NCBI GenBank assembly: GCA_003971905.1
Contig: RSEE01000015.1
Coordinates: 806,001 to 870,000, forward strand
DNA: 64,000 bases
Direction: 5' to 3'
Source of the DNA: Moniliella sp. 'wahieum'
Taxonomy: Eukaryota
Shown here: positions 3,417 through 61,352 of the stretch, one piece after another
How the letters are laid out: every line of letters starts with the position of its first letter
How positions within the stretch are numbered: position 1 is the first letter of the stretch
Position numbers and translations under genes: made by a program
The notes under the pieces: model-generated
The model's database searches: none
Seen by the model: only the letters and a program-made list of their open reading frames with translations
Told to the model about the DNA's origin: nothing

Positions 3417-3841
3417 GCTTTCGGACCGACATGTCTTTTCTAGGAATGGCTTGCTGATTGATCATCGATCAACCAACTCGAACAATTCACCCATCCATCA
3501 ATCATCTTTGAGTGCAGCAGAGAGGCAAAGAAGAAGGGGGACAAGACGCGACGCTGTCTGGATTCAATATTGAGGCCTGAGGGCACGCTGGTTGAGAAAC
3601 ACTGCACGGCTGCGGGGTGCGTCTGGGATTATCGATCTTATCAACCCTAACCCCCTCGATTATCCCAGATTCCCGGCACTCTTAGCTTGAGAGCCACAGA
3701 TGAGGGCTGAATTTTTGGGAGCATTTTCCCATTCACTCTCTATAATAGATCTATAATGATCGTTTGCCTTACCCTTATGCATTTGCCCTAGGGGTATATC
3801 TGGTTGAATCCGAGTCTACATCACTCTCTATTCCCACGTTA

Positions 3842-3912
3842 TAGGGGCGGCGACAAGTGGTTCCTATTCCAAGTGTTAGGGGCGGCGACAAGTGGTTCCT
3901 ATTCCAAGTGTT
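3842..3912. repeat. Perfect 35-bp tandem duplication
   Basis: taggggcggcgacaagtggttcctattccaagtgt x2. Confidence 0.9.
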
Positions 3913-3994
3913 CCAAATGGGATTCTTTCCAGTTCGATCAAATGCATTTTTAGGTATATTTTGGGTCAGTTAGGCTGTCCATTCCGCCATCCTC

Positions 3995-5826
3995 CTACAG
4001 TGAGGTTTCGTGGGCAGAGGGAGTTGCTGAGCCCTTGACATGGCCGCTGAAGGAGGAGGAAAGGGGAGGAGAGCAGAAATGCCGTCGACCATTCCAGCGT
4101 TTTGGTAATACCACGTTTTGCACGGCACATCTCGATGACACGGGGTTCTGCTCAATCATCTGTTGGATCTCCGCCCACGCGTCCAGTGTCTTCGCCCTCT
4201 TGGTGCCCTTTCGGGATGCGGGAACAGTTGTGCCAGCGAGGTCTTCCTCCGGCAAGTCATCAGCATCCTCGCCGACCTCGACCTGGTTGCCCCCGGATGC
4301 TGATTCCCTGCCCCTGGTGGGGGTCGAATCTGCCTGCGCGCCCCCATAAATTTCCTTCTGCATCGCTGTAGCGAGAAGGAGGGTCACGACTTTGCGACGA
4401 GACGCCATGGGAACGAGAGCTTGCGTGTTGGTCCCTATACTCCCCCAAACCCTTCCTGCCCATGACGCAGTCTGGTTCATCCAGTCCTCCTGGTTCGATG
4501 CATCCACAGTCATGGGCTGAAATCACCGAAAGTCAATATCTCCGACTGCAAGCAACAGACGTCATGGCGTCATGGTCATATCGGGTATGTGCACACAACG
4601 TACCGCCAAATCGTAAATGCAGCGACGCATGGTGGACCAGACCGGGTCCAGGAAACTGTCAACAGGGTTTGGACAAACTGTCTTTCTCAACCGATGTGAG
4701 CCAGGAAGTGGCCCGGGTCAAAGTTAAACTCTTCGAGACCTCGGGACGAACATGCCAGTTGCCGGCGGAAAAACAAGCCTAAGTCTTTGTTGTTGCAGGC
4801 CCGCTCTCGGGATGCAGAAAAACCCATACCGCGAGCTCTCTGCACAGGGCTGTGAGTAGTGATCCGTTCGTGTAAAGAGGGAGAAAAGTCAGTACTTTGC
4901 AAGTAATCGTTCGGTTAGCGGCAAGAGCTGATGGTCCCGACCTTGTTGTGCTCCAGCAAGCGTTCGAAGTACTGGCGTGGTTGGCCATGGTAAAGCCCCT
5001 GGCGAATGATTCTTGCTTCGCACTGTTTGACATAAAGAGCTCCCGAAATTTCTTGATTTCCTCATGGAGTGATACAACTTTCCGGTGTAGCGAGCGGTTC
5101 GAAGAAATAATGGCCTGCTCCGCCGTGAAAGGGACAGATCAGGCGGGATACAAGGAATTCCTCTGGATTGACGAGACCCTCTTCTTCTTCGGCGTCTGCT
5201 GGGCGCGGAAACAAGTTGTCAACGTCAACATCCCCTCGTCTGAATCGTTGTTCATCACCGTCGTGTTCGGCTTGTTGCTGAAAAGACGCAGAACCGCTGA
5301 ACCATCTGGGCCGGGAGCCGGAGAGGGAGAAGCCGCCACACCTCTCGTTGGTTCTCAGCTGCTCCCTCTCCCCCCTCAGGCCCGCTGGTGGTCCCACTGG
5401 CGTCACCACGATCGTCCTGGATCAGTTCGTCACCTTCGAATCAGTCTCCATCATGGGCTCTGGCTCGGGGTTGATACGTCGGGTGTCCCTCGGGCGCCTG
5501 CGAGCGGCGTTGTTGGTCCGAGATGCCTGGGACCTCTTGGTGGTGCGGGAGGGAGGCATTGTAGAGTGGCGGGACTGCCTCAACAGAAAGGTCGTGAGGG
5601 GAAAGGTCGTGGGGGGAAAGGTCGTGGGGGGAAAGGTCGTGGGGGAAAGGTCGTGGGGGGAAAGGTCGTGGGGGAGGGCATGCAGTTCGCGTAAAAGGAT
5701 GCGTCTGTGTCGTCGCGTCATCCCTAGAGGCCGTACAGGGATCGAGATCTGAGATGCGCAGAGCGAGATGTGACCGTACCACCTCTTCAAATTGAGGCCC
5801 GGGGCCGCTGTCTCATCGATCATCAA
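3995..5826 (-). CDS. Fragmented hypothetical ORF, probable accessory gene of the adjacent CMC-like transposon
   Basis: Chain of overlapping minus-strand ORFs (5422-5826, 5062-5409, 4779-5033, 3995-4513), low-complexity N-terminus, charged C-terminus (KRAKTLDAWAEIQQMIEQ); divergent from the transposase. Confidence 0.35.
5587..5675. repeat. ~15-bp minisatellite (AAAGGTCGTGGGGGG), about 6 copies
   Basis: Directly visible; encodes PHDLS/PTTFP repeats on the minus strand. Confidence 0.9.
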
Positions 5827-6614
5827 CCTAAAAAAAGAAGCATGGTGGTGGAGGTGGAATGAGTGATCAAAACACCGAGCGAGTCCGGTGCGCGCTCAGT
5901 TGCCCGGGGCGCAATACTCAATGTCAGGTTCAAGATCGACCCGGGGAGCCCAGCTGCTCGGGTGCCACAGCATGATGCATGATGTGGCACCCCGGAAACA
6001 CACAAAGGACGAGTAAATTTTAAATAGCATACTGTGCCCCCTGCGGCCTGAGCGCACACAGAGGCCCCCGAGAGGGGCAGGGGCCGCTCGCGGGAAGAAA
6101 TTCTCGTCGCTCTTCGCTCATCCCACTTGTCGATGACTACGCAACAAGTAACCCTAACCGGTAACCGGTCCCCGCGGCAACGGGCACCGGGCAACAGTAA
6201 CGTACGGTGTAACCTCAGCGTTAGGGCCCTGACTAAGCGCTCACCCGTGCTGCCTGCAGAATAAGACCCACACTATTACGGCCTGCGGCCTCACCCTCCT
6301 GAGGGGCCCGAGGCTTCTGGTGACTCATGAGGTGCGTGAGCCTGCGTCGATTTGATTGTGCAGCAGCCTCCACAGGCATAGGGGGGCACTATTATCCTAC
6401 CCAGACTCTTCCGTAGCCACAGCCTCCCTCTAACGAACAAGTTGAATACGCGCTGAGAATGTCATAGCGTGCCAGCAGCGGAAAAATAGGACAGACAGTT
6501 CAAGCCCATTTCCATCGGAAAGACACCTGCTCGGGGCTCACCAACCTGAAGAACTCTCCTACAGGCACACCATCACCATCCCCCCAAAACCACTCACCAT
6601 CTGCCAACAACAGC

Positions 6615-11441: not shown

Positions 11442-12035
11442 GAACCAATGGTGAAGGACGAGGATGGCGGGAGACAGAGGAGACAGCGTACCGACTACCA
11501 CGTGATGGGGCCCGGAGCACTGGGAGGATCAGGAATGGAAGTCGACCACACGCTGCGCGACACGGGATCGCTGGAGGCGCAGAGCGCGTTCCGGAGGGTG
11601 GTGCATGCGAGCACCGCTACCCCCTTGGAACGCCGGGAGAAGGAACTGCTTCGGATGCTTGAACAAGCAGAATGCGACAAGAACGCCAAGTACCAGGGAC
11701 GCACTCAAGAGACGTTTTTCCCCCTGGTTTTGACGACGCGAGGATACTACGGCACCAAGACGGCGGGCAAGTTGTTTGCGCATTGGAAGGAGTTGGCTAC
11801 TAAGTCTCAGTGGACATGGTTCCTCGCTCGGATGTCAACCACATTCATCCGTGTCCACACGCGCTACCTAGGGTACGGGACCGGATGGCGCGAGCCGGAG
11901 GGTCCTGATATCCTGGGCGATCCCCCTGGTTCCTTGACCCTGGTGGTGCCCCCAAGTAACCCCCGCAAGATGAACGGTTAGGATTAGACGTAGCGTTCCC
12001 CCTGTCCCAGCCTTAAGCTCTGCCAATGACATGGA
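11442..12035 (+). mobile_element. 5'-truncated CRE/Cnl1-like non-LTR retrotransposon (RLE endonuclease end + 3' UTR)
   Basis: EPMV...RTDYHV...MEVDHT...KNAKY...FFPLVLTTRG RLE motifs; near-identical to the 3' part of the copy at 34422-35995. Confidence 0.8.
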
Positions 12036-12844
12036 ATCAGCCACGGGAAAGAGATGAATGCTACGGCGCCGATCACAGGAAAACAATAAGCAAAGTTTAT
12101 ATGCCCCATAGCAAACAATGTGCTTTATCCCCAAGACGCAGAATATGGAAATTTCACATACACAGTCCGCAGCCGTGTGCAAGCAGTTCCGCTTACATGT
12201 TACAAGGAACTGGGCCGATAGAGAACCAACATGCCAATAAGTGTTTGGTGTCGTCACTTCGCCCCATGCGCACTCTTAACAACAGCAGCTCTGTTGTGTT
12301 ATGCTCAAAATGAAGAGAAAAAGCGCATCACATATGGGGCCACAACTGACGACGAAGGGGATAGAGAGTATGTGTCTGTCTTTCGTATACGCCGAAAGAC
12401 CTTCCCATATGCGTGTGTTGGAACGCATATATGTGGTACACATGGCCCCACACACGAGGTCACTATACACGCTTATAATAAGAAGGGTGTTTCTTCAAAT
12501 GGCAACATTGGTGTGGTGGTCTCTCGGGTCTCAGATCTCACATAGCGTTGTCTTAGGCACGCCGCTGGCCTTCTCAGATCTCAGTCCACTCAGATAATGT
12601 CACATGTCAAGTTTCAGGCCCTCAGACCTCCGGCGCATTGCTCAACGACATTCCACCGTTCGCACCGGTCCGGTCACCGAAGAAGAAAGACCGCCGCGGA
12701 TCATCGATCACCGATCATGCACTATGCATCAGGAACTCATCAACAAACTATACTCGCGCAAGTCGCCCCAGGATACCTGATCGAGAACGAAAGGCTCGTC
12801 GGTACATTTTATAGGTACCTCGATCTCTGTCGCTTGTCGCATTG

Positions 12845-13024
12845 TGTTGGGACGGGCGGTCCCCTACATAAGCCATCAAGGCGCCTTATTACTCAGGCTT
12901 GTTTGCACCCTGTCTCCTGTAGGTGGGCATAAGGCTTAGACCCAACCACCACCACCGCGATTGCTTGCTCTGCTATATTTCCAGAGGTTCAGCGCCCAAC
13001 CCTTGGGCTGTTCCGGTCTTACCA
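12845..13024 (+). mobile_element. Solo LTR, diverged relative of the copia LTR at 18003
   Basis: TGTTGGGAC...TTCCGGTCTTACCA; shares actcaggcttgt, aaggcttagacc, accaccac..gcgattgc, tttccagaggttc and cccttggg blocks with the 18003 LTR; flanks CATTG/CATGG (1-mismatch 5-bp TSD). Confidence 0.8.
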
Positions 13025-13119
13025 CATGGTGCACCAAATGGCTCAGTACTGAGGCTCAGTCCACAAGACCTCTGTGCGGACCAAGCAGTGATGCGAAGTT
13101 CCGCGCGGATTTGAACGGG

Positions 13120-13705
13120 GTAATGACTCATGCATGAGTCCTACGCCTGGGTGAGCCTGAAGGCCTGAGGCTCAGGCCTGAGGAGGGCCTGATGAGCCTG
13201 AGGCTTGTAACCGGTAACCGGTAACCGGCGGTAATGTAATAAGTACCAAGTGCCAATCGCCCCCAATTAAGCGCTGTGAGACGCGTGACATATGACATGC
13301 GAGCGCGCGAGAACTGTCCAAAGGTACAGGATGTATCAGACTAACATAGGATGGATGGTGCAGACCGTTGGGTAGTACGAGGTACGACGCACTAGAGTTC
13401 GTAGAGTTACTAGCTACTAGTTAGTAGAGGTTGAAAACAATACATCCAGACCAATTAAAAAGTGTTACACTGTGACGCGTGACGCGTGAGATGGAGATCT
13501 GGCAAAAAAGAAGAATTGGAATATGCGGAGAAAGTGAGACTGTGTGGTCCGCGGGGGCCACGGTGACCGGTGACCGATGACTAGTGACGCGTGACGAGTG
13601 ACACGCGTCTCGGACGAACGGAAGCTTGACAGCTTGACAGTTTGACAGGTGCGAGTCACCGGTGACATGTGAGCGCGAGCGCTCTGCGCTGGTGCATGAT
13701 GAGAC
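13120..13705. repeat. Cluster of 7-bp periodic xyTNAy'x' palindrome arrays
   Basis: (GGTAACC)3 near 13207, CCTGAGG runs, (CGTGACG)2 near 13472, phased TGA array 13564-13601, CTTGAC runs. Confidence 0.85.
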
Positions 13706-15569
13706 TGGCCGCTGACCAATGGCATGTGAATGCGACGGAGAGGCTTTTGCAGCATGAAAGTGGTGGAAGTGTGATGGGGGTAGCAATGTAGTCCCATCAT
13801 GCAATTATTCTCGATGGGGGGCTGGCCTGGGTTTGCCTTCGGATTGGTTCAGACAGCTGCTGTACTCTTCTCTCAGCACCATAGATCTCATTCCTAGGGT
13901 CTGGCTGTTGTTCCCCCGTTACAGGCTTGCATCAGGTCTTCTCTCCTCTGATGGATATAGCGAACAATCAACAAGGGAAGAAGGAAAGCATACTATATCC
14001 TCCTGATAGTTGTGAGTACAACCATCATGTGCGCATGTACACAATATTCCGGAAGATGACCTTTGCCAGGCGTTCCAATTCGAGGTGGATGACCGCGGTG
14101 GACAGATATATTCTCTTTGGTCTGAGATCTGAGATCTGATGCTCAATATTCAATGCACAACGCATGTAAGGGTTCCGAGGCTCTGGAGAGAGTGCCTGAA
14201 CTTGACACGCGCGCGTGTGTGTATATTCTGGGGTCGGTCAAAGATCGGCGAGCACTCATTAAATTATGCGTTAATCATCACTAGCAGGATCGTCGAAATC
14301 ATTGATCAGGGATGGGGAGCACTTGGATCCTTGGTATTGGGGGAGGGGGGGGGCACAGGGCGACGAATATTCAACAGCGCTTAGGCCTTGGGTCATACGC
14401 GCCAAGCTCTGCCAAGGCGCTGAGGGTCTATCAAGCGATGACGGTGACGAGGGGACTAGCACACAAAGATGTGGCTAGTTGTATAGTGCGCGGGACCAGG
14501 ACCACCTGCCCTCGGTGGGATGTTGTAGTCGATGATTGATGCATGATGTATGATGAGGCGTGTTGAGACGTTGACGCCTGAGGCATGTGGATGGTGGGGA
14601 AACGGCTTCCTTTGGACGCGAGTGCTTTAGACCTCAGGTTACCGGGGTGAGGCCTCAGGCCTCAGGCCTCAGGGCCTGAGGGCATGAGGCGAGGCAGGTC
14701 ACGGGGACCTTGTCGATCATCGATCATTCACTTGAAGAGGATCATAGTTTTGGTAAGTTGGCGGACTGAGTAAGACAATCCAACTCTCGTGGCCACACGG
14801 GATAGAGGGCTAGCCAGCTGTGACAGGGGAGATTTGCGAGGTGAAGTGACCAGAAATACTTCTGTAGTGCCTGAGCGGGGCCAACACATATTTGACTCCC
14901 GTCACTTTGACCCAGACCTCTTGAGTGGCTCTATATTGGATGGTACCTATTGGAAGTGTTATGATGTACCTGAGCTGGACATGATTGCTCGGGTACTATA
15001 GTACGCCGCGGTTATACGCGTTTTACAGTTCCATGTTGACGCGCAGGCTGGTTACTGGTTGTAATGGGAACATCCTGGGGTACGAGGGGCAGGAAGCCAG
15101 GGTTGTGTCTGGAGAGGCTGGAGAGCAACTGGGGGGTTCTCTACGATCCCCCAGTACCCCGGCCTCCCCGCGTCCGCAGTCAAGCGCTGATGTTCTCGGT
15201 CGATGACAGTCGCGGCCCCCGTGGGGCGCATTTGTGTGTCACATGTCACACACACCTGTGCCCGCAGGTCACCGGTGACCGGTGACCGGTGACATGGCCA
15301 CATACACCGGGCAGCCATGTAAGCAGGAATCCAGCCTCTCTTGCGTCCTCTCGGGGGGGGGGATGTCGATTTTTTCTTCCCAGGAGCGAAGTATAAAACG
15401 GAGCACCATTGCCTATCCACTGGCGCTTCCTTTTCTTCTTACCCTCACCTCCGCTGCTGCACTTCCCCTTACGGCTCATTCAGTCGACCTACCACCAAAG
15501 GCTTGTTGAGGTGCACCCTCCCCCCTCCTTCCCTACTGAGAAAAGTTTTTCAACTCTCCGTCATTCATT

Positions 15570-18002: not shown

Positions 18003-21000
18003 TGTTGGGACCCGTGGTCCCGTACTTAGGCCAAGGCGCCTCATCACCCTTCACCCCTGATTTGTCCTCCGAAGCCTCCACGTGTATACTCAGGCTTGTC
18101 TGAACCCCTGTCTCTAGGTGTGGCACAAGGCTTAGACCTTAACCACCACCATCGCGATTGCATTGCTCTACATTTCCAGAGGTTCTTCACCCAATCCCTT
18201 GGGTTCCTCCGGTCTTACAGAGTTACAATCCTCTTGACGCTCAGCCCTGAGCCTTCCACTCTTACACTCTTCGGTCCTCCGCTGCCGGCCCTATCCACAA
18301 GCGCTTGCTCGAACTGCGTAAGCTAATGGCAAGCATCATGAGCTCTCAGACTCAGGAGTCTTGGTTCAACTCCTCAACCCCTACTTCACCAACTGCCGGA
18401 GCAGAAGAGAGCACCACTCCCGTCGGAGTTGACCACGCCTCCCCGCCGCTGACACCATCGCGTGAATCTACCCCTACACCTCAACCCACCCCCGTGGGCC
18501 CCGACAACACCGCGAACGACGTCGCCACCCTCGCCGACCGCATTCGCAACATGTTCAAATTGTTTCCCGAACACATCACCCTCAAACAGCTACAGGACAC
18601 TGGTATCAAGCTTGGGTACAGCGAAAAGACGACCACAGAAGCCATTGTCATGTTATCATGTGAGAATCCACCCAATGCTAGCAAGAACGAAGGTGCCTTA
18701 TCGTCAACTCCGGCCGTCGACGACAACCCGTGGGCTTTGACTCCCGACAAGCTCCTCCGTAGTGCCACTCGCAGCAACGTGCCGTACCACGAGCGTTTCC
18801 ACAACAACAGCTCGTTTTGGTTATGGACCCGGATCTTCCTCCCTCGTATCCAGATTATCCCTGGAGCGCGTGAGCATCTGGAACAGGGCAAGGCCCTGGA
18901 CGGGTATAACGCAGAACTGGACGCTCACTTGGCCAACATTCTACTCCCGTGGATAGACTCCGACGTCGTCCAGCAGATCACCGGCGATGGCACGCCGGCT
19001 CTAGGGTCTGCATACTATCATGCTCTGCGTGATTTGTACGGCACCGTTTCAGACACTGAGATCTGTGATATCCTCATAAAGGTTCTCACTCTCAAAATGG
19101 GCACCAAGTCGGGCCGCCAATACCTGAATGAGTTCACTGTGGCGGTAACCCAGTACGAGATGACGTCCAAGTCCAAGCTGGACGAGATTGGTCTAGCACA
19201 GATGCTACGGAAAGGCGTTACTGATCAGGGGTGGTTGCACCTCCATCGTAACAGCAGCTACGCCGAATTGCGCCGAGCAGTGAGCGAACTCAAAGGCTCC
19301 AACTACGGCAGTACCTCCAGTTCAAGCCCAGCTCCCTCCAGTACGGCCCCTTCGGAAGCCACGTCGCACAGCCAAACAAGCAGTACGGTGACAGGCCGCG
19401 GACGAGGCCGAGGTGGCAGCGGGTACAGAGGAAGTCACCGTGGTGGCCAACGTGGCGGCCACTTTAGCCGGCCGGCTACGACAGCCCAGACCACCTCATC
19501 TGCCCATGCAGTAACCCCTATGGCAGCCACTACACCACCCAAGCCAGCCAACCTCCCTGCGCAACACGATTCAGGTGCGAGACCATCCGTATTCAATGAA
19601 CGAAGTGCGTTTATCAATCTTCGTCCACACCGCGAGCCCATAGCAGTGGCAAACGGACAGATCGCATACACTGAAGGCATTGGCACCATCTCTATGTACA
19701 TTCAAACCCAGAACGGAGCCCCTATCCGCATCCACCTACCCGGCAGCTTGTACTGCCCCACCTTCCCGACCAACCTGCTCAGCGCTTACCATCTATCTAT
19801 CGCAGGCATTGGCAGCTGGATCCCTCCAGGTGGCCATGGTCTCTATCTCGGACGACACGGCGAACCTTTTCGTCTCGCCGCCGACTCAAGCTATTCCCTT
19901 ACTCTGGCGCCCAATACGACAGCCACAGCCAACAGCGCCACTTCGCTACTCAACCTTGATGCAACCCTGGTCAAGGTGAAAAACGCCCACATCCGATGGA
20001 ATCATGCACCTCTAGATCAACTTTCATCCCTCACGTCGGATGACCCAGCATTCGAACGGGTCAACAGTGGCGACATCGCTTTAGTCCGGTCCTCGTGGCA
20101 CTGTGCACCATGCGCATTAAGCAGAGCCACTGCCCCACCCCACGCCACGACTGGACGCCCAATCCGAACCATTCGCCCTTTCTCTCTCCTCCACCTCGAC
20201 GTCCTTGACATATCCCGCCAAGGCGGCGGGGTCATACTTACGCCCTTATCATTGTCGACGACTTTACGCGGTATACCTGGACGCTACCCCTGGTGTCCAA
20301 GGGTGATGCCACAGCCGAACTTCAAGCCTTCATCCGGCGCGAGCATCGCCAACATCCCGACCGCCCCCTTCAGACGGTCCGCTCTGACAATGCGCCTGAA
20401 CTCACCACCGCAATGGACGAGTTTTACTGCGAGCTGGGAGTAGTGAGCGAGCGCACCAATCCTGGCGAAAGTGCGTCCAATGGGGTCGCCGAACGCGCCA
20501 TAAGATCGATTACGGATCGCGCTCGACTCATGGTAATCGCCAACAGATTGACTCCCGACGAGTGGTGGGAACACAGCTTGTTGGCGGCCACATATGCACA
20601 CAACCAGTCGCCGCCGAAAGCACTGGGTGGGGACAGCCGATTTGTCCGGTACCATGGCTTCAAACCCTCCCTTCGCATGCGCGGTTTTGGCACTCTTGCC
20701 TACCTGCACCTATTGCCCAACCAACGCGAGGGCGGCAAACTTGGTCCGCGGGCCGTCCCAGCAATGTTGGTGGGTTACGGGCACGGCCGCGGTTCGAAGG
20801 GGTGGCTCTTTGCCATCCACCAGGACGACGGCCAAGTTGGATTCCGTTGGAAAAAGCCGTCCACCTGGACGCATGTCCCGTACACCACCGAATATCCCAC
20901 GCACTTTCATCTGGACCCCCTTGTCCCTGCTGGTGGCGGAGAGGTGCGGGGGGGCGGAGAAATGGGTGCTGGTGGTCAGACAGCTCCCCACCCCGGCGTG

Positions 21001-23556: not shown

Positions 23557-23777
23557 CTACTAGTAACTAGTAACACAGCTACGACTCCTTCTTTGACTTT
23601 TGCGAAGCTACGCAAAAACCCTGTAAAATCACCATGGTGAGTTGGGTTTCAGACACATTTTTTCGGGCGAGGCACATAGTGAAACCAATCGTCATACGGA
23701 GATGCAGAAGAAGCAATGCCGCTCAAACAAGGATTAATGGTGTGGATGCAGCTCAGCATACATCATGTGTGTATTGT

Positions 23778-32073: not shown

Positions 32074-32169
32074 TTTTTCATTTGCCGTGCAGAAAAGTCT
32101 TTGAACATCGGACCGCGATCTGAACGCGATCCATGTGTCGGCACATCCACCACGTAGTGGCAATCACTA

Positions 32170-40879: not shown

Positions 40880-41238
40880 CGCACCGCGCCAATTGCCATT
40901 TTGGCGCCCACCACCAAATCCCCACCGCCTCGCCCCCGCCCCAGTCATCTGCTCGTCTCCTACTGATTCACCCCGATGTAATATCCCTACGATCCTACGT
41001 GCCTTGCTTGACGGATCGTAGGCCCTCATTTGTGACTCCCGTTCCAACCCACGTCGCGTCGCGTCCCATCCTTCATTCTCGATTGCACTTGCTCCCACTC
41101 TTCTCGTTGTCACATGTCACTACTTGTCACTCCCTAGCCTTGTCCCCTTTGCCCAGTTGCTTGGGCTGAGATCCTCTGAAAAAAAATGTTGACACTATCT
41201 CCTAACTTGGCTAGCTCAACTGAAAATGCATCTGTGCC

Positions 41239-42431
41239 TTACGTGCTCACTTCCGTTACCCCGGGCTCAGTCGCTTCGCCCCATACCTCGGCCAGGAGCC
41301 GGACCGCAGCAGTGTGTGGACCGTCAGTTAGGACGAGAGGTGTAGCGGCGGGCGGACCGAGTGGTACGTCGAGGTGGCGGTAGGGACAAAAATCGGCATG
41401 AAACGCGACTGGGTCCAAATTGGCCGTCGCAGTCGGGCCGCTGTACCGCCGTAGCCCCACCTCGCGCGCACAGAGGCTGCAGGCCAGCACCCTTGGGTGA
41501 CAAGCCGCCACCCCCGCGGCCAGAGCAGCTGCGCGGCAGCATCGGCCTCCACTGCCACCCCAGAAGCGTCGTCTGGACCGATGCGGAGCGTGTCCCCGGA
41601 CAACGAAGCAGCGAGGGCGGTGCTAAGAGAGGCGGCAGCCTCGGCCCGAGCGGGGGGGAGAGAAGTAGTTCGGGAGGTGAAAAGATGTCGGCTGGATGCG
41701 GAAGTGGGCAGGGGGGGGGGGTTAGAGTTAGTACACGTTGTATTGAAGAGCAGGGCGCACGTACCGTCGCACGGACCCAGCCGCCATGCACAGCCCGGAT
41801 GATGTGGAAGAGCAAGTGCAGGGAGAGAGGGGGACGGGGTGCGCGTCCACTTTGCCAGACCAGCATCCAACACTGCCGTGTCGCACGCCACCTTGCCCTC
41901 GGGGCCCAGGAGAAAATCCGGGATGCTCCCGCGCAGCACTGACCCAACCTCGGCCGGCTGCCACAAACTTGGCAGTTCAGCGCTTCTTCCCGTACACTCG
42001 CGCTCGAACTCGCACTTGAGCTGGCCGCGCTCACATCGTTGACCTCGGGCGGTGCTCGTCGCCATCCCCATCGGGCTACCTGGAGTGGAGCGAACAGTGC
42101 ACGGGCCCACCCCGACCAAGTGTCATAAACGGGTCCCCATCCAGCTGCGTCGGGGGCTGGGCGTGGGTCGTGTCGGTGCGCCGTAGGCCAAGCTGCGTGC
42201 GACGCTGACAAAGTCTGCTAGGGGAACGACGCGGGCAGGGTCCAAGTAGAGGCGGTAGGCCGAGGGCCGGAGGGTGGCCAGGCGGGCATGCAGCGCCGGT
42301 AAGCTGGTGGGCGCATACGCCGCGTCACCCTCCGCGTCGTCAGGCAAGGCAGGGGGGAGCGGGTACGCGTCCAGGCTGCGGTCGAGGGCGCGGAGGACGT
42401 CGGCGGCGGCCTGGATGCTGGGCTCGGCCAT
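41239..42431 (-). CDS. C3HC zinc-finger protein, Rsm1/Pml39/NIPA-like
   Basis: YAPTSLPALHARLATLRPS, GW, LNCQVCG, AAQLL..GW, LACSLCAREVGL, DPVAFHADFCPY motifs across shifted frames. Confidence 0.6.
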
Positions 42432-42678
42432 GCTCGCGTCGGGTGGGATGGAGTATCGAGTGTAGGTGGCCGGCTGGCGAGGGCGACTGGCTCACCTGCA
42501 ATTTGAAATCCAGGCGAGGGCCATGTATCATGCGTCATCATTCATCATGCATCACCCAGCAGCTGGCAGCCTCTCCGATCCTCAGACAGACTGAGTACTC
42601 CGATCAATCAGACTCAGCCCTCAATGGGAGGACTTCTTGCCACCTCGCACGCATTCCTGCGCCGCCATTGCCACCACC

Positions 42679-45098: not shown

Positions 45099-47166
45099 TC
45101 ACCCCCCCCACCCAGACCTTGAGCCGGGAGAAGGACAAGACTCCCCGCCAACCCGACTCGTTCAAGTGGACAGATTCCGCGACGCTTATACCATTTCAAG
45201 ACGCTTGCCTGCCTGCTGGGGGCATACTGTAGACACCCATTCTCTTGGGTACTATATGGCCAGCTAATGTATCTTTGGGATCTCCTTTCCTTATCCACCC
45301 TCTCAAAACGAACCCCATCGAAAGTTGTGCGCTGCAAGTGCCATACAGGGTGAGGATAGAGGCTCAGGGCGATACCTGATCCTGACTACCTAATAAAAGG
45401 ACTACTCTGTCTGGCGGTCAATGCCAGGAATGACAGAACTAAGGTGCTACTACTAGTACTATAGCCGAGAACACCTCCGGGGACCTAATGGCCAAGGTAC
45501 GTGCACTGTTCGGATCACTGGGTATCCTGATCTGAGAATCACAGAGCCGGAACATCTGGGGAGACCTCATGGCAGCATCGATGAGGCCTGGAGTCCTGAT
45601 GGTCCTCGAGGGTGATGCAATCGCACTGGTGGTGGCGGTGGTCTATAATCCAGCCCGCAACGCCGACAGAGGACCATCAAACAGCCAATCTTCGCCAGGG
45701 GCTATTAGGGTGGGAGAGGAACAAGGAAGCCAGAAGCGAGAAAACAACGGAACTCGTACGCCTGCCAGAGGAGGGACTGAAGGGACTTTTCGGCCGAAAT
45801 GCACATGCTTGTACTATTGTTGAGCCACCCGCGGAAACGGTTTGCCACCTCCACCGGCAATGAATTGCGTCCGGAAAACCTCCGTTCGTGAAGCTAGCGA
45901 AGCTCTTGAAAAGCTTGAAGCTTGAAGCTAGTAAGTAGTAACTACTTCGTCGTGTGGCGTTTAACATGTCGGAGATCTGAGATAGTCCACCTGGCCACTG
46001 AATGTTACATGCATGTTACACGTGTCGCATTTTCACATGTATAACTGTCACACGGCATAATACTGTCACTTACTATCTACCCTGCCGGTGAGACGTCGGT
46101 GTGATGAGGAAGACACAAGTAATACGATGAAGTGCTATCGGATGATATTCTTAGTGCCTCCGGAGCCTTATTCGCAGCCTTCGGAGCCTTCATTTGCTTC
46201 GTCTGCTTGGATATATGCCAACAGCTAGTGTGCCAGGGCGCTATGGGGCTTAGACAGGAGGGGGTTACCAAAAAAGCCGTGTCAGCCAACAGTCAGCACG
46301 CTCAACCAGTGGGGATCATTTTCCCCACCATCCATTCTCGTCCCTTCCCGCCTTTCCTGTCCAACTCCTGACCGTTTCCAGTCAATTGGTTCAGTATAGA
46401 CAACCCCTCGTCTTCACTTAGCTGCCTCCCCTTCATCTTCCGACCTCGTCATCCACCTTTCCATCCGCCCAGCGGTCACGCACAACAGGCGGGCGAGTAG
46501 TAAGGTTGTTAAAACGGATTCTGGTGACCCTCCGATATAGAACTTAGAGATTAGAGATAGAGATCGTTGGCGTAGCCAGCCCCACCCACCCGTGACGCGT
46601 GACGCTTAGGCGAGTGCGAGCCATACGGTTGTTGGCGGATTCTGGTGCCCCCTCCGATATAGAACTTAGAGGTTATTGAGAAAAGAGAGTATATATTGCC
46701 GACAGTGTCCGGAGTACTGACAGCCGCGGGATCGAGATCCGAGGTGCTCAGGTAGTGAGCTGCGGAGTGGGGGGACGTGACAGGATGTCTAGAAGCATCG
46801 CTCAGGGCCGCAGTGTGCGGAAGGGGCTATTGGTGCGAGAATTTTTGGTGCACTCTCTGAGGTCTGATCTCGAAAGAGACAAAAAAACGTTAAACAAAAA
46901 AGTGACGACACGCTTTATATAACTTTGCCTGGCACTACATTGCCATTCACCCCACCTGCACCAATACCGCCTGCCTCATTCCCACCGTTACCTCGGCGTC
47001 TTGGTCTAGTGGATCCAGAACAGGTGCTTCCCCCTTTTTGGTTGAAGGTCAGGCGCGACACGCGACTATTCTTTGGACGACTCTCTTCGCGACAGTGTTT
47101 TACCTTTGAATACCACACAAAAGGATGTGGGGGCCACACCAAACCACCAGCACAAAAGGGACGCCA

Positions 47167-51277: not shown

Positions 51278-51859
51278 CCAGATGGCGGGGCGGCTGCGGG
51301 GCGAAAGGACGGGGGACTCTGGTGCGACTGCGTTCCTCCTTGGAATCCATATACGACTGGGCCACGAGACAGACGTGTCGAGAGCCGCGTGTAGACGCCG
51401 GTGGTTTTCTGAACGTTCAACACGTGCAACGCTGGCCAGCGGCTGGCGTGATGCGTGATGCATGATGCATGGTGAAGCTCGATGAAGCTGAAGCGGCCCG
51501 CTCAGCTGAAAACCCGGGTCGGAGGTGGAGCAATTACCTCAGCAGAGCGCAACACTGGCGCGGTGCGGCGGGGCGAGCGACAGCCAAGCACGTGGAGCAG
51601 ATCCGTGGAAGCACCGCCCGTCCCCCCTGCAGGCGACCGCCAAGCCGCCGAGCGGGCTCCAAATCGTCCGAATCCGCTCGGGCTCTGCTGTGCGGTTGCG
51701 CTCCTCTCCCACCACCCGCTTCCACGCACTCCCACCGCGCGATGGATGCGGCCAGCGGCCGTCAGCATGCGCCCGGGCACGCATCGCATGCCGTCTACGC
51801 ACTCGTTTTCCCCCATTCCCCGCAGATATACTCAACCCCGCCCCCCCCACCATGTCACA

Positions 51860-53991: not shown

Positions 53992-56796
53992 TGCGCCCAT
54001 CTGCAATCGCTTTCCTCCTATTCGCCGTTCTGCCAACAGCAAATGTGTGTGTGCATTTCTATCATTTACAACAAGTGTTTTCAAATGGTAAGAGATGATG
54101 GGACTGGTTGTAATTGGTCGGGTCAGCGATTGCAGGCACACTTGATGCCCCTCGTTCAGAACGTTCATGCAGTTCATGGACGGGTATAGATTGAGCGAAA
54201 CGGGATCGGACATTTCCTGTTTGAAGTTATGGTGCCTCATCGCCGGCCTCAACACATTCACGGTGTTTTCAAAAATGGATTCGCCTACCACTTATTGCAC
54301 GACGGGGTCATCGACTCTTCGTCCGTCATGCGCGGGCGCCGCCAGGGGGCCCGCCCTGGGGGTTTAAGGGGTACAATCCCTCCGAGGTCCTAAGGTTCGA
54401 CTCACGGTAGTTACGCGCTTGGGCTGGTTGGTGGTTCCGAGCGGAGCTAGGGACAAGGAGAAGCCTCTCGGCGTATAGCAGAGGCGGCTGCAGGTGACCA
54501 TGGGGGAAAGCCACGAACCATTGCTAACAGACAGGGACTAAAGGGAAACAAGGCAACAGAGAAAGAACGGGGAGAACAGGGGAGAACAGGGGGGACGGCT
54601 GCCGCAAGGACAGCCTAGAAAGGTAAGGTAAACAGGCATGGGGCGTGTTAATGCGAGGACAAAGGCCTACGGAAAGAAGAAGACAGAGGGATGTGATCTA
54701 TTCCAAGAGAGGAGCCCGTTAGGGGCAGAACATAGAGGAGAGTCGGATAGAACAGCGCGATGCGTGATGCGTGATCAGCTGCATGCATGATGGCGCTGAC
54801 AGCCCCACCACGACTCGACGCTAGGATCCGACGAGATTGGAAGAGTGACAAATCAAGAGCCAGCTGGCTAGGAGGAATCTGAGCCGAAAATGGGCTTGAT
54901 GCGGGAAGTCTCCTCAGCCCCACCAGGATCCGGCGTGAGCGTGAGGTAGCGACCTACACTGGAGCGTTGAACCGTATACGGTAGGAGCTTGGTAAAATCA
55001 TTCGCGGGGTTCTCGGTTCCAAGAACCTTGTGCCACAAAATGCGTCCCGAATCGACATGCTCGCGGAACCAATGGTTGCGAATGTCCATATGACGAAGGC
55101 GTCCAATGAAACCAGGGCGAGAGATAATTGACAGGGCAACAGCCGAGTCGCTATAGAGATCCACCGGACAGTTGGAAGGTACTAGTTGAAGCTCGACCAT
55201 GAGGTTACGAATGCGGAGAGCGTCGCGGGCGCCCTCACTAATAGCCATCATCTCAGCTTCAGCGGTCGACATTGCCGTAGTGGTCTGCTGGGCGCTGCGC
55301 CAGTGCACTAGGGCGCCAAAAACAAACACAGCGACCCCTGTTACCGACTTGCGTGTGACCTTGTCGCCGCCCCAATCGCTATCGGTAAATACGGCAATAG
55401 GAGGTGCCGTTCGATTGATCCTGAGACGCAGAGACCAATCCAATGTACCACGGAGGTAGCGCAGGACATGTTGTGCGGCGCTGCGGTGTGCAGCAGAGGG
55501 ATCCTTGTTCCAACGACTGAGAAGATGTACGACAAATGACAGGTCGGGCCGGCAGGTCTGCGCGGCCCAGCTGAGGCTCTGCACAATCGATATATAGCGC
55601 TTATGCTCGGCGACAGTGGCAGGAGCTTCGTCTGGTGGACGTGGCGGGAGAGGTGTATCAGGATTGATAGGCAAACGAACAGGGTTGCACTCGAGCATGT
55701 CGGTGCGGGCGAGTAAAGCTAACAGAAATGCACGCTGGTCGCAGTCAAAATCATCAGGGCGAGTAACATAGTGCACACCCAGCATCTTACTGAGAGGACC
55801 CTTGTCGCCAATCTTGATGTTGAGACCGAGTTCGTCCATGAATGCGTCAAAAGCAGCTTGGGACGGGGCCATGGCCATTCCGTCATCACAGTATATTGCG
55901 AGCATGATGGTCGTATTCGCTCGTTTGCGTATCCATACGTCCTGTTCTGTTACCGTCGAGCGGAAACCAATATCTCGTAGCTTGCTGGCGAGGTGGCGGT
56001 GCCACGCAGCGCCGGAGGCTGCAAGGCCATAGAGGGACTTCTTGAGTCGCCAAACGTTTGCTTTGTCGGTGAGAAAACGATCGGGAGGCTTAACGTATAC
56101 CTCATAGGGAATGGGTGCATGGAGATATGCACTCTTGCAGTCAAAATAATATGCCTGGAGGCCTTGCGCTTTACCTCCCACGGCTACGGTGCGAAAAGAC
56201 TGATGTGCTGCGCCACTCGAGAATGTGAGGGCCTTGGGCAACTCACTTGTATCCTCCTGGTTTCCTTGAACCACAATACGGGCTTTCCGTTTGAGGAACA
56301 TATTCTCTGGGTGACGCCAACACTGTAGACGGTGCGGGCACCCAAGATCTTCGTTCCGGCCGGAGGGCGTGGCACTTCTTCAAAGGCATCCATGGATCTG
56401 AGCCCGTCAAGCTCAATGTGTTCGGCCTGGCGCCACTGGGGCCACTCAGAGGTGGCCATTGCTTCACGCTCGGTCCGAGGGGCAAGGGGCACACCGTCAG
56501 CAGTGGTGCCGACAGTCGGGGGAGGGATGCGGAAACGGCGTTGCCGGCGGGGAATGGCTTTCTTTTTCGGGCTTGGTGTAAGGGATGCGGTGGCAGGATC
56601 AGGGGAAGAAACAGTAATAGTAGGGGGGATTGGGTGGGACAAAGGGGGATGACGCGCGGTGCGCGCATGGCCCGTTGGGCTCCAATCGGGATCAAGCTCG
56701 GCTGGCGGCTCATCCGTCAAGGGAGGCGCATGCGCATCCTTGGGTTGATAGAAATCAGGGGGGCGACGCGCCCGAGCCGGATTGCGACGGGGGCAG

Positions 56797-56860
56797 CTTC
56801 AGCCCCACCAGGCGTGGAAACTTCAGCCCCACCAGATGTGGAAACTTCAGCCCCACCAGG
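56797..56860. repeat. 24-bp tandem repeat, ~3 copies, in the copia IN-RT linker
   Basis: cttcagccccaccag...gtggaaa repeats encoding GGAEVST. Confidence 0.85.
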
Positions 56861-59800
56861 TGTATCCGGACGGTCGCGAAGCCCATCCGGTGGCGTACCC
56901 GGCAACGATTGGGCCTGGCGTATCGCCAGCCCGGGGTTTGTGGGATCCCACATGACGTCGGTGCACCACGCCCTGTACGAGCTGTGGCCGTCTTCTGTGA
57001 TAAACTCAAATTCGTATCCCTTGGAGCCGAGCGGATCGAATCCGACTAGCATGCCAGGGCGGGCGCGCGGCGCGGCGCGGTGGCCGCGCTCGGGACCTAA
57101 CAAAGTACACCAGCCGGCCGCACCCCAGGGTGCCCCAAAATAAGAGCTGCGTGGGAGGGGGCGGTCGTGATAGCGTTCAAATGGTGAGGGGGCGCCCAAT
57201 GCGGCCGACACACTAACGTTGGCATACAAAGCTGCCGCGACAGCGCGTCGGCCCAGTACTGAGACGGTGCGCGGGCGCCGGCGAGGAGGACGCGGGTACG
57301 CTCCTGTATAGTGCGAGCGGCGCGCTCGGCGTGGCCATTCTGCTGGGAGGTGTAGGGGGTGGTGGTGGTGTGCTGGATCGGTGCATGACCGGCAGCAGTG
57401 AGGAGGTGCGGGACACGGGAAAACTCAGTACCGCCATCGTGTGGAGACGGAAAAGACTGGCGCCGTGGCGGGCGAGGAGGCGGCGCTCCTCGAGGAGAAT
57501 TAAGTTGGCTAGTGCCATTGCAGCGTCGCTCTTGCGCACCAGCGGAATGGCCCAGAGATAGCCGGTGCAGTCGTCGACTACGACAAGTAAATTGCGCTCA
57601 CCCTTCAGCCCCGTCGGCCAATCTGTCACTAGATCGGCATGCAAGTGCGCCAGTGGGGCAGCTGCACGTGCCGTGTGGCTCTCAGGGAACGGGCGTCGGG
57701 TGCCCCGCCCCGCCGCGCACGCCTGACAAACGCAGGCCGCGTCGGCCTCGGCTGCATGGGCCTGGTGGAAGTGATGCGTTGCGCAACTGGCCCCGTGGCC
57801 GTGAGGCGGGGAAGCTGGCGCCAACCAACATGACCATGGCGGGCATGAGCAGCCAGTATCCGGGTATAGTCGGCCACGGCGGCACGGGCGTGGGCTTGAA
57901 TGGGGACGTTGGGGACGTCGCAGTGGTAATCAACCACATAGCCATTAGCGATACGGTCGTAGCGAGCAACAATTGCGGGATCGCTATGGATAACAGCGCC
58001 TTGGCGGTGTGCAAGGAACTCTACTCGATGACCAGCGGCATTTGCCTGCGGTACAGAGAGTAAGTCATGGTCTAACTGGGGGACAAGCAAGCAGTACAAG
58101 TCAAGGATGCATTCAGTTTGGACTGTGGAAGCCGGGATCGAACCCGCTTCACCCCACAGCCTGTCACCGCAAGCTTCCTGGACGCGCCAGCCAACTCAAC
58201 CCACCCAGTCGCAGGCTCGAGGAAAATGAAACCCTCGGGCGAGCGGACCATGCTCGGCGTCGCGCCGCTGTCAACTACCAGCTTGTGGAGCGCAGACGCA
58301 GTGGTGGGTGGTGGCAACCCCTGTGACAGGGCTGCCGCGAGTTCCTACTGGCGATCAGGAGGCGGAAAGAAACGGGGGCTAGGCCTTGCGCGTTCGCGGT
58401 AGGGCTAGTTGGCTGTGGGAATGCCGGAGCTGGTAAAACCAGAGGTGAGGGGTAGTACGTCGGCATATAGCCGGGCGAGTACATCGGTGGCGGAGGGGTT
58501 CCTCCTGCCTGGGCGTAGCGACTAACTGCTGTGGCCGAATGGGAAGTATTGGAGTTATTCGAGCTGCTCGACATCGGCATGTTCTTCAACTCCGGATGCA
58601 GTGACCAGCATTGGGCCTCTGCGTGTCTGCCATTGGGGTGAAGACGGCAGGTACCATTGCGCTCTGCGCGCCCTCCTTTGCCCTTGTGCGAGGAAACAGC
58701 CTTGGTGACGAGCACTGTGTCCTCGATGTTCAAGAACTGCAGCGCTTGGCTCCGGGTCTTGCCCTGGAGCTGTTGCTCTTCACGCGATTCGGCTCAGGGC
58801 AGCTATTGGCAAGAACGCTCCAGGCACGAACGCTGAGCGGGAGTCCAATCATTTCACCCATACCCACGATCCGCTCGATGCGGGCAAGGAACTTCCGCGC
58901 CGTCTCATGCGCCGCAGGCTTAAGTGTGTCCAGGCGGGAACTGACATCACTCTCAAGTTTGACCTGGGTGGGACGATTGCGCTCGCACATCTTGCGGTAC
59001 AGGCCTGAGGCCGAACCGCAGGCAACATGACTCTGCGTGGTCGAGTCACATTTGGTCAAAAGGACATGCTCGAGCCGCCTGTCGATCAGCTCTTCCTCAG
59101 GGGAAGAGGGGCCGTTGACGACTAGGTTCAGGAACTGGTATGCCGAGAGCTGGTTGCGCGTATCATAGTCATAATCAAGCCAGTGCGTCGTTCCGAGTTC
59201 CCAGGAGGGTAAGCTGTTTCCTTTAGCCAGCGCCCTAATCATCTCCTCCTCCACAGAACGTGTCTGATGAGAAGGGATTTCCAGAGGTGGGAAAGTGTCA
59301 ACACTGCTGGGGCTGTGGGCAGATGTTCGAACTGGGGGAAACCAATTGGGAATCAGCGCCGCGGTACCTTGAATGCGGTACTTGCGGGCAAAGTAAGCAA
59401 ATTCGTGCATGAATGCGAGGTCGTGAATCGCATCTTGTGCCTGTTCCGTAGACCACTCGGGGTGTAAATCTTGAAGATGCAACAGGAACATGAGCTCATG
59501 GTGGGTTAGGTTGGTTTTCGGGGAGTGATTTCCTTCGACAGAGGGGGGGGTGCCATCGTGGGCAATTTGGGCGTCTTCACCGTCCAGACGCTCGGGGGCG
59601 GCGGGGGTGGCGTGGGGAACTGCAGGCTCCTCTTGGGTAGCCTCGACACGAGGAATGGAAACTGCGGCAGACATGCTTTCGGCGCGCGGGTTACGCTTCT
59701 TCTTGGAAAGGGGTGGAAAAGCAGTATCGGCTCCGGAACGGAGACCAGGCATTCTGCCGTGTGGGGTGGGGTAGGTGGGAAAAAAATATAAGTAGGGCTC

Positions 59801-59909
59801 AGGCGGGCAGACGAGAGAGGTGTAGTCTCCGCCTACTCAGAGGATAGTGTGGGCTCAACCTGTTAATGCGAGGACAAAGGCCTACGGAAAGAAGAAGACA
59901 GAGGGAGGT

Positions 59910-60770
59910 TGTCACGGGGGGGTCCCGAGGTGGGACCCCCCCTGTAGTTTAGGGTATAAACCCTTGGACAGGTCAATCGGTGGCTCGTACGTTAGGTCCT
60001 GCTCCAGATCCTGGTTGAACCGAGCGGGTGTAGAGGCTAGGGAGAGACCCTCTAGTTTGGGTGGCTGCCTGCGTGCAAAGGCCGCAGTCCAGACCCTCCG
60101 AGGTAGGAGCCGTGTACGTAGGTCGTTAGACCAGCTGAAGGGGTCCAGGAGCTCCGGAGCTACTCTGTTCCTCGCCGCGTTACCACACTCGGTACGCTGT
60201 AGCCGGCGGGAACAGACAGAGTCCTAAAGAAGAGCAAGCGCTACTGATGTGAGTAACCGCGGCTTGCAGTGCACTCGACGTAAGTCGTAAATTCGTAAGC
60301 GTAAGGGTGGTAGAAGGTGGAAGGGCGAGAGAGGAACTGGTAGTCGGGGAGACCAACGGTAATAGACAGGATGGTCGACCAGGACCACAGCTAGCAAGCC
60401 TTAGACATGGCTGCTTATATACACCACAGCAGAAGGAACCAGGCCTCGAGTGCCTCATGACAAGTATGGACAGAATGCGGGGCACTTCCCAGAAAGGTAA
60501 AGACTAATGTACAGCCCTTGCTTCCCAAGGCGCTGACGCTGCGTAGTCGGGCGCAGCAGTAAGGGTTCTGCCAAGACTGGACGCAATAGTCACAAAGCAT
60601 CGTACCGATAAGCCCATGCGACCATGGCGGGCCGCGGATGATATCCGCAGCAAGGATAAGGTGTCGACTGGCTCTCTCTCGCTAGTCTATCCGGACTGAC
60701 GCGTGTTGTACTGAGATGTCTACGACATGCGGGGCTCAGCGTCCGGAGATAACCGGAGCGCCCCGTAACA
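59910..60770. mobile_element. 861-bp solo LTR (probably Ty3/gypsy-type) inserted in the copia 5' LTR
   Basis: TGTCACGGGG...CCCCGTAACA terminal inverted repeat; perfect TSD GAGGT at 59905-59909 and 60771-60775; no coding capacity. Confidence 0.88.
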
Positions 60771-61352
60771 GAGGTGATGGATCTATTCCAAGAGGGCCCG
60801 TTAGGGGCAGAACATAGAGGAGAGTCGGATAGAACAGCGCGATGCGTGATGCGTGATCAGCTGCATGCATGATGGCGCTGACAGGGCGACTATGTCGCTT
60901 GGATGCGTAGACGTGATGATCGCGCTAGCGGTTAGCATCATCTCGGGATCTTTCGTAAAGGATCCACAAGAAAGAGTTTAGCATTTTGATTCCGGAGTTT
61001 ATTCCCAGCGGGCCCTAGGTGCTCTTACCAGCCGGAAACAGAGAGGGCGGTGATGCTGGGAACGTGAAGGGTGGCGGCCGGAGTAAGGTGTTTGCTGGCG
61101 GGGCAGAAAGACTGCCGACTGCCAGCAGCCCAGCATCGCCACTCCCTACAGATCTCAGACCCTTCCAAGGCCATGGACGAGAGGGGGTAGGAATGCCCGA
61201 GAGGCGCAGGCGGCTGCCATCGACATCATCACACGCTCCTTGTTTCAATCAGGCCTCAGGCGCTATCACGTGGGGGTGGGGGAGAGGGACCCGTGGCGCG
61301 TGACGCGTGACGCGTGACGCGTGACGCTGAATAGAACGTTGAACGTTCAAGT

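Follow-up and report, generated by a model that had tools for sequence, protein, structure and literature searches.

Tandem arrays of self-complementary heptanucleotides centred on T-N-A in non-coding DNA of Moniliella sp. 'wahieum'

Introduction

Copy-number change in C-N-G triplet repeats (CAG/CTG and CGG/CCG) is generally attributed to hairpin slip-outs. Here we focused on short tandem arrays of 7-nt units, many of them odd palindromes with the triplet T-N-A at their centre, in a 64,000-nt stretch of Moniliella sp. 'wahieum' DNA (contig RSEE01000015.1, positions 806,001 to 870,000; hereafter, the window, with positions counted from its first base). As in the C-N-G repeats, the unit is odd-palindromic and an array can pair with itself with one mismatch per unit. 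The fungal unit is, however, 7 nt long, has a T-N-A rather than a C-N-G centre and forms six pairs per mismatch, and the fungus has many different units per genome, in arrays of only 2-4 units. By analogy the arrays may be regarded as a 7-nt counterpart of the hairpin-forming C-N-G repeats, for which we infer copy-number change.

Heptanucleotide repeats are known from bacteria, including the short tandemly repeated repetitive (STRR) sequences of cyanobacteria. Rehm et al. (2015; PMC4692102) report G-rich heptanucleotide repeats in intergenic DNA of Xanthomonas and Nostoc, and these resemble the fungal arrays in their period of 7, their intergenic location and their many loci per genome. The fungal host differs in being a eukaryote, and the bacterial units differ in not being self-palindromic, as judged from 43 prokaryote-like loci analysed here.

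T-N-A is the target triplet of PIF/Harbinger-type transposases, which prefer promoters and leave a 3-bp TNA/TWA duplication; mPing is a promoter-preferring miniature inverted-repeat transposable element. The arrays share with these systems a T-N-A at the centre of a loosely palindromic site and a preference for DNA upstream of genes, but a 3-bp duplication cannot yield a 7-nt period. Sites of the AP-1/Gcn4 and Yap1 type, bound by bZIP factors, are 7-bp odd palindromes built from TGA/TCA or TTA/TAA, as the fungal units are; their centre lies between opposed half-sites, whereas the fungal arrays are direct repeats centred on TGA. Finally, Hirao and colleagues reportedly found that the smallest stable DNA hairpin has 7 nt and that an extra-stable mini-hairpin consists of a 2-bp stem and a G-N-A triloop. 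A 2 + 3 + 2 unit would thus be the smallest self-folding DNA, which offers a reason for the period, although the extra-stable loops are G-N-A, a centre found in no array here, and not T-N-A.

A full-text literature search that included literal array strings, with subscription journals and supplements outside its scope, found no description of such arrays; the class is apparently undescribed, and the initial annotation of the window likewise knew of no description of its many-unit grammar. The term 'palindromic microsatellite', as used in PMC7218506, refers to (A)n/(T)n palindromes in Fusarium mitochondria, which are unrelated.

Results

Period-7 arrays far exceed chance

An array was defined as an exact period-7 tandem of at least 14 nt and counted directly, with 100 dinucleotide-preserving shuffles of the window as the chance baseline. 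The window holds 42 arrays, against 3.27 +/- 1.90 in the shuffles (maximum 9). The unit is, in some rotation, an odd palindrome in 27 of them (0.31 expected) and has a T-N-A centre in 26 (0.03 expected). They are spacer-free, head-to-tail copies of one short unit and are in this sense simple tandem repeats. The initial annotation, made from the letters of the sequence, had proposed period-7 odd-palindrome arrays with a T-N-A core; these counts confirm them as real and far above chance, and every example it had listed was recovered at, or within a few bases of, the position given for it.

Tandem Repeats Finder assigned period 7 to 36 of its 97 rows. Among other periods, period 5 showed no excess over the shuffles (62 vs 51), and periods 8 and 9 showed only a small one (5 vs 0.9 and 4 vs 0.2 tandems, respectively). 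The autocorrelation of TGA peaked at distances 7 (57 pairs), 14 (43) and 21 (29) over a background of about 15-18, exactly the series that had been anticipated, and TCA gave 54 pairs at distance 7. Even palindromes of at least 12 nt were scarcely enriched in the window (26 vs 15.3). Odd palindromes of at least 13 nt were more so (44 vs 17.1), and this surplus consists mostly of the arrays themselves, so that a general excess of palindromes was rejected as the cause.

The arrays gather in a few stretches of about 5.8 kb in total, at 12.5-15.3, 28.5-29.6, 32.0-32.4, 37.4-37.7, 42.5 and 61.0-61.4 kb. Inside these clusters, TGA or TCA occupies 5.5% of positions (2.9% elsewhere), and both flanking base pairs are complementary at 30% of TGA and 22% of TCA triplets, compared with 7% elsewhere.

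Many units follow one grammar

Three equivalent readings of the unit are xy-TNA-y'x', TNA plus a 4-bp palindrome, and an A....T palindrome of 6 bp plus one base. Thirteen different odd-palindromic units were found, 12 of which are centred on T-N-A. GGTGACC, CGTGACG, CATGATG, GATGATC and CTTGAAG each occur at three or more loci, GGTAACC, TGTGACA and AGTAACT at two, and TCTGAGA, CCTCAGG, AGTCACT and GTTGAAC at one; CTAGTAG (TAG + CTAG) forms the sole palindromic array without a T-N-A centre. The stems vary freely, with 10 of the 16 dinucleotides in use.

The same design extends beyond the exact arrays. Outside them, the clusters contain 53 A....T hexamer palindromes in about 5.1 kb, compared with 156 in the 58 kb elsewhere. 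The spacer is a palindromic tetramer in 31 of 57 TGA-N4-TGA pairs and 23 of 54 TCA-N4-TCA pairs, and when identical neighbours are collapsed, palindromes still make up 40 of 97 tetramers (about 1 in 16 expected). Counting short forms, the window has 45 separate TNA-pal4-TNA loci against 2.1 expected under a second-order Markov model, so that one grammar indeed runs through many units, as had been claimed at the outset. When the triplet was left free (XYZ-pal4-XYZ), the excess was confined, rotations of the same arrays aside, to TGA (21 vs 0.75), TCA (19 vs 0.72), TAA (3 vs 0.12), TTA (2 vs 0.25) and TAG (2 vs 0.10). Period-8 arrays within the clusters (units AGCTTGAC, GCGCTGAG and GGCCTGAG) follow the same design with one additional base, and non-palindromic TGA heptamers (GCGTGAT, GACTTGT, GCTCACC and ACTGAGA) also form arrays.

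In one chain (13561-13606, + strand), six TGAs at exact 7-nt spacing are constant while the tetramers run CCGG, CCGG, CCGA, CTAG, CGCG, CGAG, with symmetric double changes between neighbours. Across decayed arrays in general, successive units mismatch at similar rates at the TNA positions (0.28-0.34) and at the tetramer positions (0.22-0.42), which indicates no general extra constraint on TGA; such a constraint was therefore rejected overall, with only the chain at 13561-13606 hinting at it.

Array ends and self-folding

Many arrays consist of 2-4.4 perfect copies joined head to tail, with unrelated units among arrays, and no dispersed repeat family linking the clusters was found in the window. 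Perfect copies of so many unrelated units argue for local, recent changes in copy number rather than for a dispersed element. Array ends occur in all seven phases. Run lengths modulo 7 are distributed unevenly over the 45 loci, at 2, 7, 7, 4, 4, 14 and 7 for residues 0 to 6, and in most loci the flanks extend the period by at least two bases on one or both sides. The commonest short form, at 12 of 45 loci, is a 12-mer in which two copies of one 5-mer enclose the reverse complement of its adjacent two bases (hereafter, 5+2+5; boundary pattern 0,2 in eight and 2,0 in four).

The palindromic arrays fold on themselves, with a mean folding z of -2.65 (n=27), compared with -0.04 in the remaining 15 arrays. 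Among the T-N-A arrays, a G/C-only stem goes with greater length (21.6 vs 17.4 nt; 9 vs 17 arrays; one-sided Mann-Whitney p=0.04). In a DNA nearest-neighbour model, T-N-A units form the weakest hairpins of the four core types: the mean minimum free energy of three units is -3.2 for T-N-A, -5.2 for C-N-G and -5.6 for G-N-C.

Arrays lie outside genes, mostly upstream

Judging from its genes, the host is a basidiomycete fungus: the introns are fungal in appearance, and the best named matches of RPL27 are from Rhodosporidiobolus, Malassezia, Rhodotorula and other basidiomycetes (71-75% identity). Pfam identified a FYVE protein, a sugar transporter, two Copia elements, RPS23, RPL27, a carboxylesterase, a kinase, two histidine phosphatases, an LtrA-like protein and a metallo-beta-lactamase-fold protein. 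Coding-like open reading frames (ORFs) make up 31% of the window, and not one of the 42 arrays overlaps them; the test is in part circular, since every frame of its own strand is stopped by a TGA array. Within that limit, it bears out the initial description of arrays upstream of or between genes and essentially absent from coding sequence. Most clusters lie 5' of genes, including the esterase, kinase and LtrA-like genes; some arrays lie downstream of genes or beside a tRNA gene, and many are 0.5-2.5 kb from any start codon. The divergent promoter of the highly expressed RPS23 and RPL27 genes contains no array, which speaks against promoters needing them in general. In 19 of 26 arrays the + strand carries TGA or TAA (binomial p=0.029), a bias inseparable from the fact that nearly all genes of the window are also on this strand, and the orientation is mixed or opposite at 28.7-29.5 and 42.5 kb.

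Towards the left end of the window lie (CATGATG)2.1 (5970-5984) and (GGTAACC)2.1 (6155-6169). The former sits within a 31-nt quasi-palindrome (5961-5991), in which 9-nt inverted arms surround the (CATGATG)2 array and 13 of 15 positions pair. The largest cluster (12480-15320) comprises a TCA-only patch (12.5-12.74 kb) and a TGA-rich patch (13.0-15.3 kb) that ends about 100 nt before a TATA-like box of the sugar-transporter gene (ATG 15571). It contains (GGTAACC)3.1 (13207-13228), (CGTGACG)2.6 (13472-13489), the TGA chain described above, a period-8 array (AGCTTGAC)3.2 that reads as TGA + C + AGCT (13623-13648), (TCTGAGA)2.7 (14121-14139), (CCTCAGG)3.4 (14650-14673) continuing into an inverted period-8 array of GGCCTGAG up to 14689, (GATCATC)2.1 (14713-14727), (TGTCACA)2 (15237-15250), and GGTCACC followed by (GGTGACC)3.3 (15267-15293), which includes a 21-nt odd palindrome. 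Orientation flips occur at 14648-14689, 15267-15293 and 61334-61350.

Further along are (CTTCAAG)2.7 (28717-28735), (CATCATG)2.1 (28919-28933), (CTTGAAG)3.7 (28990-29015), about 710 nt upstream of the carboxylesterase ATG (~29728), (CTAGTAG)2.1 (29388-29402) and the pair (CATGATG)2.3 and (GATGATC)2.3 (29498-29533). At 32 kb, (AGTCACT)3.9 (32213-32239) lies about 140 nt downstream of a tRNA gene (31977-32073) and is followed by (GGTGACC)4.3 (32260-32289). A (GATGATC) array with a one-base insertion (37396-37424) precedes a period-8 array (GCGCTGAG)4 with (AGTTACT)2 (37536-37580), and the non-palindromic (GACTTGT)2.4 abuts (TGTGACA)2.1 at 37669-37694, the two units differing by the one base that completes the palindrome. 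A TCA-rich patch (42520-42620) occupies the 250-nt divergent promoter between ATG 42432 (-) and ATG 42680 (+). Further arrays are (CTTGAAG)2.7 (45911-45929), (CGTGACG)2.1 (46591-46605), the non-palindromic (GCGTGAT)2.3 running into (CATGATG)2.3 (51446-51471), and (CGTGACG)4.4 (61297-61327) with (GTTGAAC)2 (together 61297-61347).

An Rfam scan of the window at gathering score found no structured-RNA match at the arrays and, elsewhere, two tRNA genes, at 31977-32073 (+, 47.4 bits) and 3310-3416 (-, 44 bits). Each is about 100 nt long and thus probably intron-bearing; ARAGORN found neither. The cluster at 32150-32360 starts about 100 nt downstream of the former. No more than about 160 nt from the latter are two short forms, at 3460 and 3571.

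A thinner form of the grammar in metagenome contigs

(GGTGACC)3 occurs in at least 122 metagenome stretches. Among the matches listed, most are prokaryote-like (G+C 0.6-0.7, ORF cover above 0.75), and their other heptamer arrays often contain TGA and are not self-palindromic; in 43 such loci, 2 of the other period-7 arrays were T-N-A palindromes. Seven of the matches listed are eukaryote-like (ORF cover below 0.5), with 12 other period-7 arrays, 3 of them T-N-A palindromes. TNA-pal4-TNA occurs 9 times in the seven eukaryote-like contigs (1.7 expected) and 9 times in 42 prokaryote-like loci (10.4 expected), a comparison of densities that is biased upward because the contigs were chosen for holding a seed array. 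One eukaryote-like contig encodes a fungal Zn2Cys6 domain, and another has kinase-like genes closest to Thelephora (49-56% identity). These contigs suggest that a thinner form of the grammar exists in other basidiomycetes.

On one eukaryote-like contig (L034:8001-8160), a secreted carboxylesterase-like gene is preceded by (GGTGACC)3, 650 nt upstream of its ATG, and by a CTTGAAG-type array, 530 nt upstream. Orthology with the esterase locus of the window was considered and rejected, as no protein or DNA similarity extends beyond the arrays. Two prokaryote-like contigs (L062 and L030) carry 10-16 period-7 arrays of many different non-palindromic units containing TGA or TCA, so that TGA at period 7 is common to these bacteria and the fungus.

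Retroelements and other repeats

A Copia retrotransposon (Copia-1, 18003-23556) has 217-nt long terminal repeats (LTRs) with 100% identity and a CTACT target duplication, suggesting that it inserted recently; (AGTAACT)2.3 (23559-23574) adjoins its 3' LTR and this duplication. A solo LTR of a related Copia element (12845-13024, flanked by CATTG/CATGG) lies between the TCA-only and TGA-rich patches. The second Copia element (54600-60900, -) has an odd layout, with two repeats, of 89 nt and 49 nt, whose copies lie 6082 and 5215 nt apart, respectively, and may be nested or rearranged. LTR pairs were considered as mutation clocks, but neither the Copia-1 LTRs nor the 89-nt repeat pair shows any difference (100% identity), so that they are uninformative. 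Inverted copies of a retroelement fragment lie at 34445-36025 and 11442-12040, with a reverse-transcriptase-like ORF at 34728-35633 (-), and differ by 1-nt offsets only, with no 7-nt insertions or deletions. The element at 34445-36025 matches contigs of food-metagenome run X1 and of run X2 at 95-99% identity, which indicates that a relative of this fungus occurs there. Other tandem repeats are found at 5586-5674 (15 nt x6, GAAAGGTCGTGGGGG), 3842-3912 (35 nt x2) and 56797-56860 (24 nt x2.7).

Discussion

We tentatively read the arrays as non-coding heptanucleotide microsatellites, enriched in this lineage, whose self-complementary units favour growth by hairpin-assisted slippage and which are purged from genes; of the readings weighed here it seems to us the most plausible, though still short of probable. 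Each unit would provide a 2-bp stem, a 3-nt T-N-A apex and a 2-bp return, so that a slipped-out unit or unit pair could fold on itself during replication or repair. The folded loop would evade loop repair and become fixed as the gain or loss of a whole 7-nt unit, and arrays of self-complementary units would hence arise and grow far more often than those of other 7-mers. Selection would then remove them from genes, as their period of 7 is no multiple of 3 and every frame is closed by TGA/TAA. Both slippage as the engine and the escape from repair are steps that we infer; in yeast, Nag, White and Petes are said to have found in 1989 that palindromic loops escape mismatch repair. This reading is favoured by the many perfect copies of unrelated units, by array ends in every phase, by the non-palindromic TGA heptamers that form arrays too, one of them beside its palindromic one-base variant, by the self-folding and the greater length of arrays with G/C-only stems, and by the absence of arrays from coding-like ORFs and from the RPS23/RPL27 promoter.

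Several observations weigh against this account. T-N-A hairpins are the weakest of the four core types, yet 26 of the 27 palindromic arrays have this core; stability alone is thus no explanation, and hairpin stability was rejected as the reason for the T-N-A centre. The apex could instead be favoured kinetically, as it always holds a weakly stacked pyrimidine-purine step. A-N-T centres, which are equally A/T-rich, account for only one array. The restriction of the excess to TGA, TCA, TAA, TTA and TAG implies something specific about these triplets, and the symmetric double changes at 13561-13606 imply a force that keeps the palindrome. Plain slippage predicts neither the uneven run lengths modulo 7 nor the 5+2+5 form, and the high array richness of the lineage is left unaccounted for. 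The initial annotation had held that generic slippage alone would be insufficient, and the single grammar, with T-N-A at its core despite the weakest hairpins, argues that it was right.

The T-N-A (stop-triplet) centre, the uneven boundaries and the symmetric unit changes keep alive the idea that the arrays are scars of an enzyme, transposase-like or a hairpin-forming nuclease, that cuts T-N-A in open chromatin, with repair adding bases, which we consider unlikely but worth weighing. The added bases would be P-nucleotide-like, from an opened hairpin, or fill-in of a staggered cut, and the arrays would grow by repeated hits or later slippage. The T-N-A core and the position of the arrays match the target triplet and promoter preference of PIF/Harbinger-type transposases, the excess is restricted to five triplets, and in the chain at 13561-13606 TGA is fixed while the tetramers change yet remain palindromic. 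The 5+2+5 form is what a 5-bp target duplication plus two hairpin-derived bases would leave, and residue 5 is the modal length class (14 of 45); this model is silent, however, on why the 5-mer has TGA at one end, and nothing else backs it. A tetramer predicted by its flank, which the initial annotation had proposed to look for, was accordingly seen in part, in these 12 of 45 loci. Simpler scars fared worse. A 3-bp TNA duplication with four leftover bases predicts about 56% bare TNA-pal4-TNA loci (length 10), and only 2 of 45 were found, so that a PIF/Harbinger-type footprint (a scar bounded by two TNA copies in random flanks) was rejected. Clean 14-nt duplications were also expected at about 56% and found at 2 of 45, with residue 0 the rarest class, and a 7-bp target-site or staggered-cut duplication (exactly 14 nt, random flanks) was rejected likewise. 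A search of the 64-kb window for terminal-inverted-repeat elements with 3-bp TNA, 7-bp or 8-bp target duplications returned array self-matches only, and Pfam revealed no DDE transposase besides Copia integrase in the 162 ORFs scanned out of 194 with at least 110 aa; tetramers derived from element ends would, moreover, require ten element families for ten tetramers. The suggestion of a transposase with a 3-bp TNA target is therefore not supported in its simple form. In a broader and equally doubtful version, a basidiomycete-wide process, strongest in this lineage, would write T-N-A palindromic heptamers into open non-coding chromatin. The writer might be a nuclease that forms hairpins or makes staggered cuts, or a repair polymerase that switches templates. 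Most often its scar would show a 5-mer on either side of two palindromic bases copied from the end of that 5-mer, and arrays so written may then serve as structural promoter elements.

The same three features also keep alive a role of the arrays as selected cis-acting promoter elements, either read by a factor that recognises TGA at 7-bp spacing or opening upstream regions as cruciform or slipped DNA, a role that appears to us unlikely to the same degree. Most clusters do lie 5' of genes (sugar transporter, divergent promoter, esterase, kinase, LtrA-like), 19 of 26 arrays have TGA or TAA on the strand of most genes, contig L034 has arrays 5' of a carboxylesterase-like ATG as the window has CTTGAAG arrays before its carboxylesterase, the repeated element at 54714-54802 and 60796-60884 bears such motifs, and symmetric double changes keep the tetramers palindromic. 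Yet with stems this free nothing beyond TGA could be read sequence-specifically, TGA is no better kept than the tetramer across decayed arrays, and a 7-bp spacing would place successive sites on different faces of the helix. Arrays also occur downstream of genes and of a tRNA gene, the ribosomal-protein promoter is empty of them, their orientation is mixed or opposite at two clusters, and the L034 and window esterases are not detectably orthologous. A cluster of bZIP sites was rejected, since opposed TGA/TCA half-sites are not enriched: only 1 of the 9 AP-1-type sites of the window is in a cluster, cAMP-response-element (CRE) sites are absent from the window and the single Yap-type site is outside the clusters. 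The half-site binder proposed by the initial annotation thus finds no backing in classical palindromic sites. If instead the arrays were kept as three-frame translation stops, acting on upstream or read-through ORFs where spacers are pervasively transcribed, the restriction of the excess to the three stop codons and their complements would be explained, as would the bias of TGA or TAA to the + strand; three or more units stop all frames of one strand, and 11 of the 27 palindromic arrays do so. We regard this as clearly less likely still, because palindromy is unnecessary for such a role, periods 4 or 5 would serve equally yet show no excess (period 5: 62 vs 51), in 7 of 26 arrays the stop falls on the opposite strand, many arrays lie far from any start codon, and such selection would be weak in a eukaryote. 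That the arrays are artefacts of assembly or base calling is very improbable, given their restriction to non-coding DNA, their 13 units and decayed copies, and the same grammar in independent eukaryote-like metagenome contigs and in the loose end of a contig from run X2. Two sequencing runs compared with 28500-46700 covered only the retroelement (34.4-36.0 kb) and the kinase domain, not the arrays.

Which classes of microsatellite a genome favours says something about how it replicates and repairs its DNA, and here a strict rule (a stop-type triplet plus a 4-bp palindrome at period 7), obeyed about 900 times more often than chance, offers a countable read-out of an unnamed process. Whole-unit differences between strains, if they exist, would make the arrays excellent markers and a natural system for hairpin-driven repeat instability beyond triplet repeats. 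Should the arrays instead mark breaks made by an enzyme, or act in promoters, a new activity in fungal chromatin would be indicated, and a process that writes T-N-A heptamers would amount to an endogenous mutational signature, undescribed in eukaryotes, whose grammar can be read. Many bacteria likewise have unexplained heptamer arrays that contain TGA, and one may ask why period 7 recurs across domains.

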